From: Escherichia coli
GTDB lineage: Bacteria; Pseudomonadota; Gammaproteobacteria; Enterobacterales; Enterobacteriaceae
Length of the DNA stretch: 64,000 nucleotides
Assembly (NCBI RefSeq): GCF_016026235.1
Contig: NZ_CP065613.1
Strand: one strand, 5' to 3'
Shown: piece after piece, positions 28,836 through 54,333 of the stretch
Position numbering within the stretch: the first letter of the stretch is position 1
Layout of the letters: each line of letters starts with the position of its first letter
Position numbers and translations under genes: made by a program
The notes under the pieces: generated by a model
What the model was told of the DNA's origin: nothing
Database searches by the model: none
What the model saw: only the letters and a program-made list of their open reading frames with translations

Positions 28836-29300
28836 ATGGAAAAGAAATTACCCCGCATTAAAGCGCTGCTAACCCCCAGCGAAGTGGCGAAACGCAGCGG
28901 TGTGGCGGTATCGGCGCTGCATTTCTATGAAAGCAAAGGGTTGATTACCAGTGTCCGTAATAGCGGCAATCAGCGCCGATATAAACGTGATGTGTTGCGA
29001 TATGTCGCAATTATCAAAATTGCTCAGCGTATTGGCATTCCGCTGGCGACCATTGGTGAAGCGTTTGGCGTGTTGCCCGAAGGGCATACGTTAAGTGCGA
29101 AAGAGTGGAAACAGCTTTCGTCCCAATGGCGAGAAGAGTTGGATCGGCGCATTCATACCTTAGTGGCGCTGCGTGACGAATTGGATGGATGTATTGGTTG
29201 TGGCTGCCTTTCGCGCAGTGATTGCCCGTTGCGTAACCCGGGCGACCGCTTAGGAGAAGAAGGTACCGGCGCACGCTTGCTGGAAGATGAACAAAACTAA
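28836..29300 (+). CDS. soxR: Redox-sensing [2Fe-2S] regulator SoxR (154 aa)
   Basis: Protein [37 protein letters not shown]... (MerR family) with C-terminal [12 protein letters not shown] cluster motif. Confidence 0.97.
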
Positions 29301-29435
29301 AGCGCCACAAGGGCGCTTTAGTTTGTTTTCCGGTCTTTGTCTTTCTCTCTATCCCGCTGGTACACAGGAGGGTTTCCCCCGACGTCAACACACCTCATTC
29401 GAGCACGTGGTGGAGGTTCCGGTTGGTGTTGATGC
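29295..29435 (-). ncRNA. ryjA: Candidate small RNA (RyjA-like) convergent with soxR
   Basis: I recall a ~140-nt sRNA between soxR and ghxP on the opposite strand in K-12; the hairpin at the soxR stop (aaagcgccacaagggcgcttt) is followed by a U-rich tract on both strands. Ends not determined. Confidence 0.3.
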
Positions 29436-47690: not shown

Positions 47691-48380
47691 TTAACCGTTG
47701 GTTAATTTTTCAAACTCTTCACACCCGGTATCAAACCCTTCCATACAGCTCAGGTTCAACCAGTGCAGCGCCTTTTGCTTGTTCTTCTCGATAAAACCTT
47801 CTTCACCGTTTAAGAACATCATTCCCGCCCAGTACTCGGAATAACCGGTTCGGGAAATTGCAGAGCTGCGTTTGAAATACCAGGTTGCCTTGTCATCGTC
47901 GGCCTTAATGCCCACGCCGTTGGCGTAAATCAAACCAAGCAGCATTTGGGCATCGACGGCAGAGTCGTTCTCCAGATCTTCCGAGGCGTTTTCTAACAGC
48001 GAAATCGCCTTTGGATAATCCGGTTTACCCGCTTGAGTATTTACCAGAATATGCGCCAGCGTTACTTCACCTTCTTTACTGCCCGCTTGCGCCGCTTTCT
48101 CTGCAAGAACTTTTGCTTGTGGATAGTCCAGACTGACCGGATTGGTGATTTTGATCTGCGCCAACAGCGCGCAGGCATCAGCATCACCGCTGTCGGCGGC
48201 TTTCTGTGCCCAATATTCGGCTTTGCTCAAATCGCCGGAGCTAAACCAGCTGTCGGCAAGAAAATATTGTGCGCGTCGGTCCCCGGCCTCTGCTGCCTTT
48301 AAATACTGGCTGCCAGGCTCGGAGTCGTTCGCGTGGGCAAAGAATGTCAAAAACAACATCAATGCGATAATTTTTTTCAT
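47691..48380 (-). CDS. yjcO: Sel1/TPR-like repeat lipoprotein YjcO (229 aa)
   Basis: Signal peptide followed by Sel1-like repeats (AQYFLADSWFSSGD..., GLIYANGVG...). Confidence 0.88.
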   Translation of the reverse strand: MKKIIALMLFLTFFAHANDSEPGSQYLKAAEAGDRRAQYFLADSWFSSGDLSKAEYWAQKAADSGDADACALLAQIKITNPVSLDYPQAKVLAEKAAQAGSKEGEVTLAHILVNTQAGKPDYPKAISLLENASEDLENDSAVDAQMLLGLIYANGVGIKADDDKATWYFKRSSAISRTGYSEYWAGMMFLNGEEGFIEKNKQKALHWLNLSCMEGFDTGCEEFEKLTNG

Positions 48381-48473: not shown

Positions 48474-50621
48474 TTACGCCAGTGCCGCTTCGCGCAGGCG
48501 AGTTTTCAACTTGTTGTACTCGTCAATCACGTACTGCTCGGCGGCACGCTGATCGGCGATCGGCTCGACGCGCACGGCGCAGTATTTGTATTCCGGCGTT
48601 TTCGTAATCGGGCTTAAGTTTTCGGTAACCAGCTCGTTACAGGCACCAATCCACCACTGGTAGGTCATGTAAATCGCCCCTTTGTTCGGACGATCGCTGA
48701 CCTGCGCACGGGTGATAATTTTGCCTTTACGCGAGTGCACCCAAACCAATGCCTCATCTTCAATACCCAGACGTTTGGCGTCTTCGGTATTGATTTGTGC
48801 GTAGCCAGGTTCATCAGCCAGCGCCGCCAGTGCCGCACAGTTACCGGTCATCGAACGGCAAGAGTAGTGACCAACTTCACGCACCGTTGACAGTACCATC
48901 GGGTACTCGTCGGTGAGTTTGTCGATTGGCGCTACCCAGTCGCAGGTGAAGAACTGCGCCAGACCGTTCGGGGTATCAAACTTCTCTTTAAACAGATAAG
49001 AAGTCCCCTGATCGGCATCTGAAGTATCGCGGCAAGGCCACTGAATGAAGCCCAGTTCGCCCATTTTCTCGTAAGTCGCACCGTAGAAATCCGGGCACAG
49101 ATGACGCAACTCATCCCAGATCTCCTGGGTGTTGTTGTAGTGCATCGGATAACCCATACGGGTGGCGATTTCACTGATGATTTGCCAGTCCGTTTTCAGA
49201 TCCCATTTCGGTTCAACTGCTTTGAAGAAACGCTGGAAGCCACGGTCAGCCGCAGTAAACACGCCTTCATGCTCGCCCCACGACGTTGACGGTAAAATAA
49301 CATCCGCCGCCGACGCGGTTTTGGTCATAAAGATGTCCTGAACGATGACCAGTTCCAGATCTTCAAAGGCTTTACGTACTGCCGACAGCTCCGCGTCAGT
49401 TTGCAGCGGATCTTCGCCCATAATGTACGCGGCACGCACTTCGCCATGCGCTGCGCGGTGCGGCAGCTCGCTGATGCGATAGCCGGTATGCGCTGGCAGG
49501 CTTTCCACGCCCCAGGCTTTGGCGAATTTCTCGCGGTTAGCCGGATCTTTCACATACTGGTATCCCGGATACGTATCCGGCAGCGCGCCCATATCGCAGG
49601 CACCCTGCACGTTGTTCTGACCACGAACCGGGTTTACACCCGCATGCGGCTTACCGAGGTTACCAGTCAGCATCGCGAGGCTGGTCAGAGAACGCACGGT
49701 TTCCACGCCCTGGTAGAACTGGGTTACACCCATGCCCCACAGGATGGCGGCGCTTTTCGCCTGGGCATACATCCGTGCCGCCTGACGAATCTCACTGGCG
49801 CTGACGCCGGTGATATCTTCAACCGACTCCGGCGTGTAGCCTTCAACGATTTTACGATACTCTTCAAAGCCTTCTGTACGGGAAGCGACGAACGCTTTGT
49901 CGTACAGATTTTCTTCAATAATGACATGGCCCATCGCATTCAACAGCGCGATGTTCGAGCCGTTTTTCAGTGCAATGTGCATGTCAGCAATGCGCGCGGT
50001 TTCAATTTTGCGCGGATCGCAGACGATAATTTTCGCCCCGTTACGTTTAGCGTTAATTACGTGATTCGCCACGATTGGGTGGGAATCCGCCGGGTTGTAC
50101 CCGAAAACGAACACTAAATCGGTATTATCAATTTCGTTAATAGCATTGCTCATTGCGCCATTACCGACCGATTGGTGCAGACCTGCAACCGATGGGCCGT
50201 GTCAGACACGAGCGCAGCAGTCAACGTTATTGGTACCAATAACGGCGCGCGCAAATTTTTGCATTACATAGTTGGTTTCGTTACCCGTACCACGCGAGGA
50301 GCCGGTCGTCTGGATGGCATCCGGACCGTACTTCTCTTTGATGGCGCTCAGGCGCTCGGCAACGTAATTCAGTGCCTCATCCCAGGAAACAGGTTCGAGT
50401 TTGCCGCCACGCTGGCGACGGATCATGGGGGTTTTCAGGCGCGGGGTCAGGATCTGGGTATCGTTAATGAAATCCCAGCCATAATAACCCTTCAGACACA
50501 GGGTACCCTGGTTGGTTTTCCCCTGCGCTGCCTCCGCCCGGACGATTTTGCCGTTATCGACGACCAGGTTGATTTTGCAACCTGATGCGCAATAGGGGCA
50601 AACCGTGACGACTTTTTTCAT
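48474..50621 (-). CDS. fdhF: Formate dehydrogenase H, selenocysteine-containing (715 aa; in-frame UGA at 50202-50204)
   Basis: Track ORFs 50202..50621 (139 aa, ...NNVDCCARV) and 48474..50153 (559 aa) are in the same frame, separated by one TGA and 16 sense codons; 139+1+16+559 = 715; molybdopterin-oxidoreductase Cys cluster MKKVVTVCPYCASGCKI at the N-terminus. Confidence 0.95.
50155..50201 (-). promoter_or_regulatory. SECIS element of fdhF
   Basis: mRNA immediately 3' of the UGA reads CACGGCCCAUCGGUUGCAGGUCUGCACCAAUCGGUCGGUAAUGGC, which forms the fdhF SelB-binding hairpin. Confidence 0.9.
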
Positions 50622-50670
50622 CGGTCTCGCTCCAGTTAATCAAATCACGCATACGCGCTCTCGACTACAG

Positions 50671-50688
50671 TATGCATCTTTTATGCCA
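50671..50688 (-). promoter_or_regulatory. Sigma-54 promoter of fdhF
   Basis: Minus strand reads tggcataaaagatgcata (TGGCAT-N5-ATGCA; GG and GC 10 nt apart), about 50 bp upstream of the fdhF start codon. Confidence 0.7.
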
Positions 50689-50788
50689 CATTTTATTTGG
50701 GGTCATTCCCTGATATTACGGGCACTATTTATTCAAAACTCTGACGAAAAACAGGCTGTCGTCAGTTTTGACGTGACGAAACGAAATA

Positions 50789-50815
50789 CCGCGTGACAGC
50801 CATCACGCGGCAGAC
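50789..50815 (-). terminator. Stem-loop after mdtP
   Basis: Palindrome ccgcgtgac-agccat-cacgcgg immediately downstream of the mdtP stop, followed by a U-rich tract on the minus strand. Confidence 0.55.
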
Positions 50816-50818
50816 ATT

Positions 50819-52285
50819 TTATTTTTTCTCGACGACGGGAGCCGCCTGATACCCGCCGCCCAGCGATTTCATCAACTGAATGCTTTGGATCACCCGGCGG
50901 CTGTCCAGCATCAGTAATGACATCTCTTCGGCAAGTACTGGCAACCGGGCTTCAGTGGCCTGTAAGCGGCTGGTTAAGCCGCGCTGATAGGCGGCCTCGG
51001 CAGCGCGCTGGGTGAAGCGCGTTGCTTCCACGCGTTCAGCCTGCATTTCTCGCTCGTCGTTGAGCGTTTGCAGACGCGTGCCGTTGACGGCAACGTCACG
51101 CACCGCGTTCAGTACTGACTGGTTGTAACGTTCAATCATCATGTTGCTGGCGGCGCGCGTGCCTTCGAGATTGGCATTCAACCGTCCACCGTCAAACAGC
51201 GGCAATTTCAGACCCGGGATGAAGTTGAACTGGCGACTGGTTTTTTTGAATAAGGTATCCAGGTGGATGGCATCAAGGCCGAAAAACGCTTTGATATCAA
51301 AGCTCGGGTAGAACAGCGCCCGCGCGGAATCCACCTGATCTAATGACGCCTGAACATACCAGCGCATGGCTTGCAGATCCGGGCGTCTGGCGAGCAACTC
51401 ATAAGAGAGCGTCGCCGGAATGCCGGTCTGGACTCGTGGTAATGCCACCGGTTTGATCTCCGGCATATCGCTGGCCCCCGCGCCAATCAATGCACGCAGA
51501 GATTCTCGCGTTTCGGTGATTTGCCCTATGACGGCAGCAATTTGTTTATCGACCGCCAGAATCTGTGCCCGCGCGCCGTGGAAAGGCACTTGTGCTTCCA
51601 GACCGTGCGCCACTTTACTCTGGTGCGCTTTCACCGCGTAATCAATCACATCGCGAGTTTGTTCTAACAGATCGAGCATCTGATAGCTGGCCTGCATACT
51701 GTAATAAAGCTGCGCTACGCCCGTGGTCAGCGATAGCTCTACTGCTGCGGTTTCTGCCAGCGCGGCATTATGCGCGCCAATGGCGGCGGCAACCGCTGAG
51801 CGATGCACACCCCACAAATCAAGATCCAGTCCGGCAAACAAACCTACTGTGGCTTCCGTATAGTACGGCCCGTCCATACCCAGTGCGGGCGCATCCATCG
51901 CATAAGGGCTTAAAAAGCCGTTCGCCGAGACGCGTTGGCGGTTGAGCATCCCTAACGCTGCGACCTGTAATTGTGAACCGGCATCTAACAAATCGGCCTG
52001 GGACTGCGCTTTTTCTTCCCGCAGTTTCGCTTCGGCGAGGGTGTGTGAACCACTTAGCGTCCGTTGGATCAGCGCATCCAGCTGCGGGTCATTGAGTTGT
52101 TTCCACCACTGCGCCTGCGGCCAGCCGGAGCTGGCAAGATGAATATCGTCGGCCAGTTTGATTTGTTCCGGTTTGAGCTGTTGATGAGGTGCAGAATCCT
52201 TACGTACCAAGGCACAGCCGGAAATCAGCGTCGTGCTGCCGAGAATGCTGCACAACAGCAGACGTGAAAGTTGACGATTGATCAT
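50819..52285 (-). CDS. mdtP: Outer-membrane efflux factor MdtP (488 aa)
   Basis: Lipoprotein signal (LISGCAL) and TolC/OprM-family length; overlaps the mdtO stop. Confidence 0.9.
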   Translation of the reverse strand: MINRQLSRLLLCSILGSTTLISGCALVRKDSAPHQQLKPEQIKLADDIHLASSGWPQAQWWKQLNDPQLDALIQRTLSGSHTLAEAKLREEKAQSQADLLDAGSQLQVAALGMLNRQRVSANGFLSPYAMDAPALGMDGPYYTEATVGLFAGLDLDLWGVHRSAVAAAIGAHNAALAETAAVELSLTTGVAQLYYSMQASYQMLDLLEQTRDVIDYAVKAHQSKVAHGLEAQVPFHGARAQILAVDKQIAAVIGQITETRESLRALIGAGASDMPEIKPVALPRVQTGIPATLSYELLARRPDLQAMRWYVQASLDQVDSARALFYPSFDIKAFFGLDAIHLDTLFKKTSRQFNFIPGLKLPLFDGGRLNANLEGTRAASNMMIERYNQSVLNAVRDVAVNGTRLQTLNDEREMQAERVEATRFTQRAAEAAYQRGLTSRLQATEARLPVLAEEMSLLMLDSRRVIQSIQLMKSLGGGYQAAPVVEKK

Positions 52286-54333
52286 TGCGTGGCTCCTTGT
52301 GCCTGTTCCGTGGCGGGCGTTAATGCCGGGGCTGTCCAGTCTGGCAAGCGGGCGAAAAGCTGGCAGACGTGTTGCTCCTGTTTTAATAAGGTGGGCAGGA
52401 TGGCCTGCGAGGCGGGTGTCTCTTCAAGCGTTATTTGAGGAGAACGGCTGAGTGCGGTTGTCAGACCGGAAGCGTATTTCTCCAGGGCGTCGGCAAACTG
52501 ACCTGCTCTGTCCGGCTGTAGTGCGTTATCCAGCGCCTGCGCCGAGTTCCAGGTGGCATCCCAGGCGTGAAGAATATCGCGGCCCTGACGAATAACCGTT
52601 TGCGAACGTTCAATCAGTAAGGCGCGTTCTTCGCTGTCCAGTTGACGCTCCAGCGCCACGCGTTGGCACATCTCTTCACAGGCATTAAACGCCGCATGCA
52701 GACCGATACGAATTTGCAGATAAGTGCGCAGAGCCGTGACTTCCTGCTGGCGTGGGATCCGCATTACTTTACTTAACATACCCAGCGTGCCAGCCAGTTT
52801 TTGCGGCAGTGTGCGCGCTTCACTTTCAGGCCAGACAAAGGTGTAAATCACCGCGGACACCACGGTACCAATGATGATACCCAGGGCGCGATCGCGAATT
52901 TCCACCAGGTCGTACACTGGGCCAAAAACGTTTTCGAGCGTGGCGAGCGCGAAGGTGACCACCATCTGTGTGCCGATATAAGAAGAGCGTTCAGAGCTGG
53001 TGGCAATCCATGCGCCCAACAGGAAAATCGGTGCCAGCACAAACAGCAATTCGACAATATTGTCCAGCCAGGGCATGACCAGTAGCGTGAATAACAGCGC
53101 CAGAATCGCGCCGCAAAAGGCCCCGCCAAAACGCAGCACCATCTTCTGGTACGACGAACCGACATTTGGGTTAGCGACGATCACGCATGTCAGCATACAG
53201 GTGTGAATGCCTTCCCAGTCCACGCCGCTGTAAAAGGTGTAACAGATCAAACAGGCGAGCAGCGTTTTTACCGCGTAGCGCATATAGTCTGGATTGGTAA
53301 AAGCATCGGCGGCCATTGATGGCGGTTTGGCTGCGGGCGTTGGCGGCGTATTCGGGTCCATCTGACCCAGTTGTAACAACGTCTGGCAGATATTCTCCAG
53401 GTTACATTCCCGTGCCGCCATCGCTTCACTTTCACTGATCCGCCAGTCGCTTTGCCAGCACTGACCTTCAGCAACGGCATGCTGCAGCTTATTGATTTCT
53501 GAAGCTAATTTTTGTCGGAATTCAATAATTGCCTGAGAATCAGCAAAAGAGGTGGGATCGTAGCGATTCAGCGTCGAGTAAATGTAGGTTACCGTTGCCA
53601 CGCAGCTTTGCCACCATGCGCTTTGAGTTCGCCAGTTGGCATCGTCCGCGAGACAAAAGACATTCAGTTTTTGCAGCGCCAGCGCCTCTCTTTCAATCCG
53701 CGTTTCGGGTAGCGGTGCGAGGCTGTCCGTCAGGTGGCTAATGGCATCATCAAGCCGATCATTAAGCGCTTGATGCATTTGCGTAATGGCACGACTGGGA
53801 AACCACAGCACGCCGATTAACGTCATCAGCAAGGTTGGATAGAGGCCAACAACGATACACCACAGCGTTAAGCGCACGACCACTTCCGGATAGTCGAGCA
53901 TGGCGGGGAAGGTTTGCCCGTAAATGGCGACAATGGCGACGGCGAAAAAGACCAGTCCCAGCCGATGGGTGCGCATCAAAAACATACAGCCCATCAGGAT
54001 CGGCCCGGCGATGATCAATCGGATCAACGGTTCGCCGTATGACCATTTGTAGATCAAAAACAGGCTGCCGATCTCCAGCACCGTGGCAACCACAAACAAG
54101 ATCGCGACAAATTTGGTGTAAAACGCGTTCGACTGAATACCGTAAAACAGCACTGCCAGCGATAACGCCACAAAAGGGATCTCAAAGGTCATCGAGATCA
54201 GAATCACCAGCAGGCAGCCTACCCAGAGTTGCACGGTCTGCGGCACGCGACCTGGTCGCCGCTCGCTTAACTCTTCATGAAAGAACGCCAGCAGCCTGAC
54301 CACCGGTAATGGCAGGGAGTTGAGCGCGCTCAT
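52282..54333 (-). CDS. mdtO: Aromatic-acid-exporter-family membrane protein MdtO (683 aa)
   Basis: Large two-domain membrane protein; start overlaps the mdtN stop. Confidence 0.9.
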   Translation of the reverse strand: MSALNSLPLPVVRLLAFFHEELSERRPGRVPQTVQLWVGCLLVILISMTFEIPFVALSLAVLFYGIQSNAFYTKFVAILFVVATVLEIGSLFLIYKWSYGEPLIRLIIAGPILMGCMFLMRTHRLGLVFFAVAIVAIYGQTFPAMLDYPEVVVRLTLWCIVVGLYPTLLMTLIGVLWFPSRAITQMHQALNDRLDDAISHLTDSLAPLPETRIEREALALQKLNVFCLADDANWRTQSAWWQSCVATVTYIYSTLNRYDPTSFADSQAIIEFRQKLASEINKLQHAVAEGQCWQSDWRISESEAMAARECNLENICQTLLQLGQMDPNTPPTPAAKPPSMAADAFTNPDYMRYAVKTLLACLICYTFYSGVDWEGIHTCMLTCVIVANPNVGSSYQKMVLRFGGAFCGAILALLFTLLVMPWLDNIVELLFVLAPIFLLGAWIATSSERSSYIGTQMVVTFALATLENVFGPVYDLVEIRDRALGIIIGTVVSAVIYTFVWPESEARTLPQKLAGTLGMLSKVMRIPRQQEVTALRTYLQIRIGLHAAFNACEEMCQRVALERQLDSEERALLIERSQTVIRQGRDILHAWDATWNSAQALDNALQPDRAGQFADALEKYASGLTTALSRSPQITLEETPASQAILPTLLKQEQHVCQLFARLPDWTAPALTPATEQAQGATQ

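Follow-up and report, generated by a model that had tools for sequence, protein, structure and literature searches.

A sigma-54 promoter, a putative FhlA enhancer and a predicted mdtP terminator in the 197-bp mdtP-fdhF spacer of Escherichia coli

Since the late 1980s, the promoter of fdhF and the FhlA-dependent enhancer that controls it have served as a model of a sigma-54 system. The published upstream activating sequence (UAS) presumably lies about 110-140 bp upstream. Comparable arrangements are found for NtrC at glnAp2 and NorR at norV, where, as proposed for fdhF, multiple repeated sites situated 70-150 bp ahead of the -24/-12 element make up an enhancer that acts by looping. The fdhF region differs from these two systems in that there is no conserved canonical IHF site between enhancer and promoter, and in its FhlA-specific recognition sequence. 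Within the formate regulon of E. coli K-12, the elements of hyc/hyp, hydN and hyfA sit upstream of sigma-54 promoters listed by ChIP-seq (PMC4591121), as they do at fdhF. FhlA itself is a known activator of fdhF (PMC3844500, PMC4987338).

Here we analyse the same control region in a 64,000-nucleotide stretch of an E. coli genome, hereafter the window. Based on the sequence and the list of open reading frames (ORFs), the spacer between mdtP and fdhF measures 197 bp and both genes lie on the minus strand. Of 5426 complete E. coli genomes, 5419 match a 701-bp query around the spacer, at loci annotated mdtP and fdhF; the query shows 100% identity to E. coli isolates of bovine and human origin. Compared with K-12 MG1655, the spacer carries a single difference, at 50697 (A in the window, C in K-12). 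This variant lies at about -35, within a conserved block of the spacer, and A is found at that column in most other species. The K-12 fdhF promoter and UAS (Birkmann and Bock 1989, as cited) are the same locus, with an identical 17-mer promoter motif and an equal predicted leader of 41 nt, and the window is a strain variant without substantive difference. The mdtP-fdhF spacer is, in other words, the already known and long-studied fdhF control region, in its standard E. coli allele. We are highly confident that the 197 bp correspond to the classical formate-regulon control region as a whole, with promoter, FhlA enhancer and mdtP terminator. The features are given below from the mdtP stop to the fdhF start, with the basis for each in brackets.

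50821-50819, minus strand: mdtP stop codon TAA (ORF list)
50777-50812, minus strand: predicted mdtP intrinsic terminator (terminator scan, RNA fold, covariation)
50793-50797, minus strand: distal conserved GTCAC, about -135 to -131 (conservation, direct repeat CGTGAC)
50759-50780, minus strand: putative enhancer (UAS) block A, about -118 to -97, TTCGTCACGTCAAAACTGACGA (conservation, FhlA matrix, likeness to hycA-hycB)
50734-50754, minus strand: putative enhancer block B, about -92 to -72, CTGTTTTTCGTCAGAGTTTTG (conservation, repeats, hexamer cluster)
50691-50720, minus strand: conserved spacer block, about -58 to -29, CGTAATATCAGGGAATGACCCCAAATAAAA (conservation in 78 species)
50688-50673, minus strand: sigma-54 (RpoN) -24/-12 promoter TGGCAT-AAAAG-ATGCA (sequence, matrix, ChIP-seq, conservation)
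50662, minus strand: predicted transcription start (+1), 19 bp past the motif centre at 50681 (rule of PMC4591121)
50622-50661, minus strand: rest of the fdhF 5' leader, the whole leader being 41 nt, 50662-50622 (sequence, ORF list)
50633-50630, minus strand: Shine-Dalgarno GGAG of fdhF (sequence)
50621-50619, minus strand: fdhF start codon ATG (ORF list)

A scan of the fdhF leader against Rfam returned no family match. Downstream, an in-frame TGA at 50204-50202 breaks the fdhF reading frame after codon 139, leaving two ORFs (50202-50621 and 48474-50153). Directly after this TGA, Rfam places SECIS_2 at 50209-50155 on the minus strand (87.1 bits); the TGA is the expected selenocysteine codon of fdhF and SECIS_2 its insertion element. 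Elsewhere in the window we also noted the gene for the Hfq-binding small RNA sraL at 29293-29433 on the minus strand (Rfam RF01408, 153 bits) and five matches to naRNA4 (CssrE) on the plus strand. Four of the latter form a tandem array at 47277-47686 with a spacing of about 113 bp, downstream of a yjcO-like ORF (47691-48380), and the fifth lies at 36672-36742.

For comparison across species, orthologues were collected with the first 139 residues of FdhF, taking one genome per species, which gave 80 Enterobacteriaceae loci. The conservation footprint is based on 78 upstream regions anchored on the TGG of the promoter, aligned without gaps and with position-based sequence weights; the 78 species are mutually related, and counts among them are therefore counts of non-independent events. 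Of these 78 sequences, only 12 have mdtP as their immediate upstream neighbour: the window itself and 11 other loci. These mdtP-linked loci come from Escherichia, S. enterica arizonae, Kluyvera, Superficieibacter and Pseudocitrobacter.

An initial annotation of the window, made from the sequence alone, had placed a motif TGGCAT-N5-ATGCA on the minus strand about 50 bp upstream of fdhF and read it as the sigma-54 promoter of the gene. The motif is indeed present, 51 nt from the ATG, with TGGCAT at 50688-50683 and ATGCA at 50677-50673. Its GG (50687-50686) and GC (50675-50674) doublets are exactly 10 bp apart, and the two mismatches to the consensus TGGCAC-N5-TTGCA both fall outside the doublets. 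The predicted start at 50662 agrees with the distance of 41 to the fdhF start listed in PMC4591121.

Taken alone, such a match is uninformative: the -24/-12 consensus with at most two mismatches is found 20 times in the window, compared to 27.8 expected. The initial annotation had proposed a scan with a sigma-54 promoter matrix as a check. On an RpoN matrix derived from 186 promoters (Table 2 of PMC7658346), the fdhF site reaches 13.56 of a possible 21.2 bits and ranks third of about 128,000 positions, but two sites score higher, one at 52361-52376 in mdtO and the other at 41743-41758. What raises the features of this region above chance is their position, their conservation across species and the published sigma-54 occupancy, not the bare patterns.

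This independent evidence bears out the assignment as promoter. The K-12 17-mer GTGGCATAAAAGATGCA corresponds to ChIP-seq peak OS41 (FAT 41), which is assigned to fdhF and is marked as experimentally confirmed in EcoCyc (PMC4591121). The fdhF/mdtP spacer is also bound by RpoN holoenzyme in genomic SELEX (PMC8743547), and occupancy by sigma-54 thus comes from literature data on the identical K-12 sequence. In Salmonella, fdhF shows sigma-54 binding in ChIP-chip and 29-fold sigma-54-dependent expression, with FhlA listed as activator (PMC3844500); the Salmonella Typhimurium promoter (STM4285; TGGCATAAAACATGCATA) differs by one nucleotide, located in the motif spacer. Among the orthologous loci, 78 of the 80 have a TGG-N9-TGC motif within 100 nt of the ATG (51-84 nt), and the promoter positions that this pattern does not force, C-23, A-22, T-21, A-11 and T-10, are 97-100% conserved in the 78 species.

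It could be argued that the motif is a transcriptionally silent sigma-54 site and that fdhF is driven by another promoter, since many sigma-54 sites are inactive, bare motif matches occur in the window at chance frequency and the best match to the RpoN matrix, in mdtO, is absent from the main text of the ChIP-seq paper. We consider this extremely improbable in view of the EcoCyc confirmation, of the sigma-54 dependence of the Salmonella gene and of the invariance of the motif in 78 species, 51-84 nt from the ATG. Moreover, a scan of positions 50300-51100 for sigma-70-like promoters found none. Based on literature occupancy and conservation, TGGCAT-N5-ATGCA is the sigma-54 promoter of fdhF.

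Two further sigma-54-like sites in the window are worth describing. The top match to the RpoN matrix, TGGCAGACGTGTTGCT at 52361-52376 on the plus strand, lies antisense within mdtO and scores 14.94 bits. Neither mdtO nor TGGCAGACGTGTTGCT appears in the main text of the sigma-54 ChIP-seq paper (PMC4591121), and this match is probably a chance or silent site. The second, TGGCATGATTCTTGTA at 14139-14154 on the plus strand, ranks fifth on the matrix and is found downstream of dusA (ORF 13013-14056), just before pspG. It is the published sigma-54 promoter motif of pspG, recovered as ChIP-seq peak OS40 (PMC4591121) and in the dusA/pspG spacer by genomic SELEX (PMC8743547), and represents a second known sigma-54 promoter in the window.

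Upstream of the fdhF promoter, the initial annotation had located short inverted repeats at about 50757-50780 (about -95 to -118), where it expected the FhlA UAS. This placement agrees with our data: the interval holds the most conserved upstream block together with signatures of the formate regulon. Block A shows the highest upstream conservation among the 78 Enterobacteriaceae species, and beyond -119 conservation drops to baseline. The block contains the heptamer CGTCACG, the hexamers TCGTCA and TGACGA and, as its core, the palindrome CGTCA-AAAC-TGACG (50773-50760). The latter, reported as cgtcag-tttt-gacg on the plus strand (50760-50773), is a genuine inverted repeat, with two 5-nt arms around 4 nt of spacer; across species its arms are conserved and its spacer is variable. 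A second reported inverted repeat, gacgtgacgaaacg, is found at 50770-50783, but its symmetry is limited to a CGT-g-ACG mini-palindrome and it consists mainly of overlapping direct repeats.

While the palindrome region was correctly identified, the conserved DNA extends further on both sides, to a promoter-proximal half (50754-50734) and a distal GTCAC (50797-50793) that the initial annotation had missed. The proximal half, block B, carries a second copy of TTTCGTCA and pairs with block A as an inverted repeat, CTGACGA/TCGTCAG, at 50741-47 and 50759-65. Direct repeats also link the parts: TGACGAAA occurs twice, 32 bp apart (50742, 50774), and CGTGAC twice, 20 bp apart (50772, 50792). Two other candidates from this region were set aside. 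In the inverted repeat TCAAAACT/AGTTTTGA, which is specific to E. coli, the left arm falls into the palindrome spacer, which is variable elsewhere, so that this repeat is probably incidental; two half-sites resembling CATTTCGT at 50776-50788 lie in a stretch that is not conserved.

The blocks keep a nearly constant distance to the promoter. From TGWCGA to the TGG of the promoter we count 76 bp in 62 species, 77 bp in 7 and 67-68 bp in 8. The sole common variant is therefore shorter by about one helical turn (about 9 bp), which keeps the helical phase, as a face-of-helix constraint on looping predicts. Enhancers of sigma-54 systems usually lie 70-150 bp upstream (PMC4987338), and the position and conserved phase of the fdhF blocks fit this range. 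The shorter spacing is found in Pluralibacter and its relatives (L012, L032, L034, L041, L052 and L075), where the enhancer sits about 9 bp nearer to the promoter (67-68 instead of 76 bp). These loci have a deletion of one helical turn with the phase retained, and their distal GTCAC has moved likewise, to about -126.

Next, we consider which protein the blocks would serve. The published descriptions of FhlA sites give little guidance. On a matrix of 13 FhlA sites (14 bp, TGWC-N6-GWCA) the palindrome is the best match in the spacer, with 8.14 bits, yet it ranks only 106th in the window. The matrix has no C at its first position, and the palindrome in this register is hence absent from its training sites. 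The 16-mer FhlA consensus CATTTCGTACGAAATG, which PMC4987338 credits to Leonhartsberger et al. 2000, matches at best at 9 of 16 positions in the fdhF region, and at 11 of 16 even in hyc. The published matrix and the 16-mer consensus are weak discriminators, even on the known hyc sites.

A clearer picture emerges from the fdhF orthologues. A 14-mer matrix derived from them picks CGTCAAAAATGACA in the K-12 hycA-hycB spacer, which is identical to the fdhF palindrome at 12 of 14 positions and whose score has no equal in a 64-kb null (the window outside the fdhF region). Two shorter signatures point the same way, with statistics that are partly post hoc and indicative only, as both were defined after viewing the sequences: at least three hexamers TCGWCA/TGWCGA cluster within 50 bp at only one place in the 64-kb window, 50742-50779, and the heptamer CGWCACG, whose background frequency is 0.27 per kb, is shared by block A, the two hyc spacers and a site that precedes the hyf promoter by about 100 bp. 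The hexamer clusters of the K-12 hyc locus (2.2 kb) lie precisely within its two spacers, hycA-hycB and hycA-hypA, and hydN is preceded by a pair of hexamers. The heptamer upstream of hyf forms part of a palindrome, CGACA-N4-TGTCG. Full-length matrices of block A (22 bp) and block B (21 bp) gave no convincing full-length match in hyc, hydN or hyf; only the 14-bp core transfers.

Together with the role of FhlA as a known activator of fdhF, these shared signatures support an FhlA enhancer as by far the best reading of the repeats. They might instead be the site of another fdhF regulator, such as the FhlA paralogue HyfR, the nitrate-responsive NarL/NarP or a molybdate-responsive factor. The weak fit of the region to the published FhlA matrix and 16-mer consensus would be in line with this idea, as would the palindrome of the same type upstream of hyf, a region that, according to the title of a reference in PMC7658346, also uses HyfR. 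Nevertheless, the same hexamer and heptamer signatures recur in the FhlA targets hyc, hycA-hycB and hydN, position and phasing suit a sigma-54 enhancer, and FhlA is the listed activator of fdhF; we therefore judge a different regulator to be very unlikely.

With FhlA as the preferred protein, the region can be compared with its other targets. The K-12 enhancers of hyc/hyp (hycA-hypA, hycA-hycB), hydN and hyfA resemble that of fdhF in combining clusters of TCGWCA/TGWCGA with CGWCACG, and differ from it in how many hexamers they have, in what order and at what distances. Direct CGACA repeats make up most of the hyc sites, compared to the inverted pair and direct TTTCGTCA copies of fdhF. The K-12 hycA-hycB spacer (L002, 570-624) holds a dense cluster of elements of the fdhF type, TGTCATTTTTGACG, TGTCATTTTCGACA and CGACACTCATCGACACG. 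Unlike the fdhF enhancer, this cluster lies about 700 bp from the promoter, that of hyp; Schlensog et al. in 1994 reportedly assigned it as the hyp enhancer.

The distal end of the spacer is occupied by a second function. The hairpin of a predicted intrinsic terminator begins 6 nt past the mdtP stop codon and spans 50812-50787, with arms CCGCGTGA (50810-50803) and TCACGCGG (50796-50789), a TGGCTG loop and a stem of 8-11 bp. It is followed by a T-rich but interrupted tail, TTTCGTTTCG (50786-50777; TATTTCGTTTCG; UAUUUCGUUUCG). The RNA folds with -19.6 kcal/mol (z -3.86). A strong hairpin is confined to the 12 mdtP-linked sequences, with a mean of -18.5 kcal/mol compared to -9.5 kcal/mol elsewhere, and within these 12 the stem has nine conserved pairs, three of them with double compensatory changes. 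These results support a terminator tied to mdtP, with termination itself predicted. The initial annotation had assigned an mdtP terminator to 50660-50800, and the hairpin lies partly in that range and partly outside; its description of two tightly packed functions is borne out by a hairpin that both adjoins and overlaps the upstream region.

The proximity of the hairpin offers another account of the repeats, in which they would belong to the 3' end of mdtP as RNA or terminator structures, for example read-through hairpins, without a role for fdhF. The repeats directly follow the mdtP terminator, a small hairpin could form from CGUCAAAACUGACG, and by our own estimate chance alone would yield a 5+5 inverted repeat about every 200 bp. 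On the other hand, blocks A and B keep their distance to the fdhF promoter in 66 species whose upstream gene is not mdtP, and the strong hairpin is restricted to mdtP-linked genomes. The conservation pattern already largely refutes an origin of the repeats in the mdtP RNA, to which we assign next to no probability, and an enhancer of fdhF remains the preferred reading.

The two functions nonetheless meet at the distal GTCAC, which lies 20 bp upstream of the GTCAC of block A. A GTCAC starting within -138 to -130, thus 2-3 bp at most from its place in E. coli, is found in 55 of the 78 species, among them 45 of the 66 without mdtP and without the hairpin. Its retention in these genomes suggests that the E. 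coli terminator incorporates a conserved DNA element linked to fdhF. The distal GTCAC probably marks the outer limit of the enhancer, and terminator and enhancer probably share bases. A similar arrangement is seen in S. enterica subsp. arizonae (L015), which resembles E. coli in blocks A and B, in their spacing and in an mdtP hairpin with compensatory changes, and differs from it in that the mdtP stop codon falls partly within the 5' arm of the hairpin and that GTCAT replaces GTCAC as the distal element.

Between enhancer and promoter, the footprint reveals a further conserved block at about -58 to -29. Conservation peaks at -58 to -50 and at -45 to -29, and the block reads CGTAATATCAGG...CCCCAAATAAAA. 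It may be the site of another factor, or an intrinsic bend needed for looping over a short range. A conserved canonical IHF site was considered here and rejected: around -53, E. coli has TATCAGGGAATGA, a match with one mismatch, but the fit over all species is that of shuffled sequence. Likenesses to a NarL heptamer and to a ModE site, judged by eye, are not claimed as sites.

These observations raise the tentative idea of an enhancer that is larger and more constrained, in which the distal GTCAC would be a third FhlA contact, the spacer block a factor site or bend, and activation strictly dependent on the face of the helix. The spacing variants of one helical turn point to such a dependence. 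If the GTCAC at about -135 were a third FhlA contact, terminator and enhancer would physically share bases. As a package we regard this proposal as possible but rather doubtful.

In the mechanism that we propose, the sequences with their conservation and constant phasing, the motifs common to formate-regulon enhancers and the stability and covariation of the hairpin come from this analysis, and sigma-54 occupancy and the role of FhlA as fdhF activator from the literature. Sigma-54 RNA polymerase would rest as a closed complex on TGGCAT-N5-ATGCA (50688-50673). Formate-activated FhlA would bind a composite UAS of TCGWCA/TGWCGA hexamers and CGWCACG at about -118 to -72 (50780-50734), through bases that we can only propose from the motifs, and the extra GTCAC at about -135 may be part of this UAS. 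FhlA would then reach the polymerase by looping the intervening DNA of about 75 bp, and its ATP hydrolysis would open the promoter, so that transcription would begin near 50662. At the other end, mdtP transcription would stop at the predicted terminator of 50812-50777, whose 3' arm and T tail overlap the distal edge of the putative enhancer.

As an ordinary textbook control region, the mdtP-fdhF spacer has little discovery value. Its practical yield is a set of base-exact coordinates for the promoter, the predicted start, the enhancer blocks and the terminator. Our results also show that neither the promoter nor the enhancer of this window can be recognised by consensus or matrix scans on their own. 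Finally, the footprint from 78 species, with its fixed spacing and its conserved spacer block, could be of use in designing formate biosensors around the fdhF promoter.
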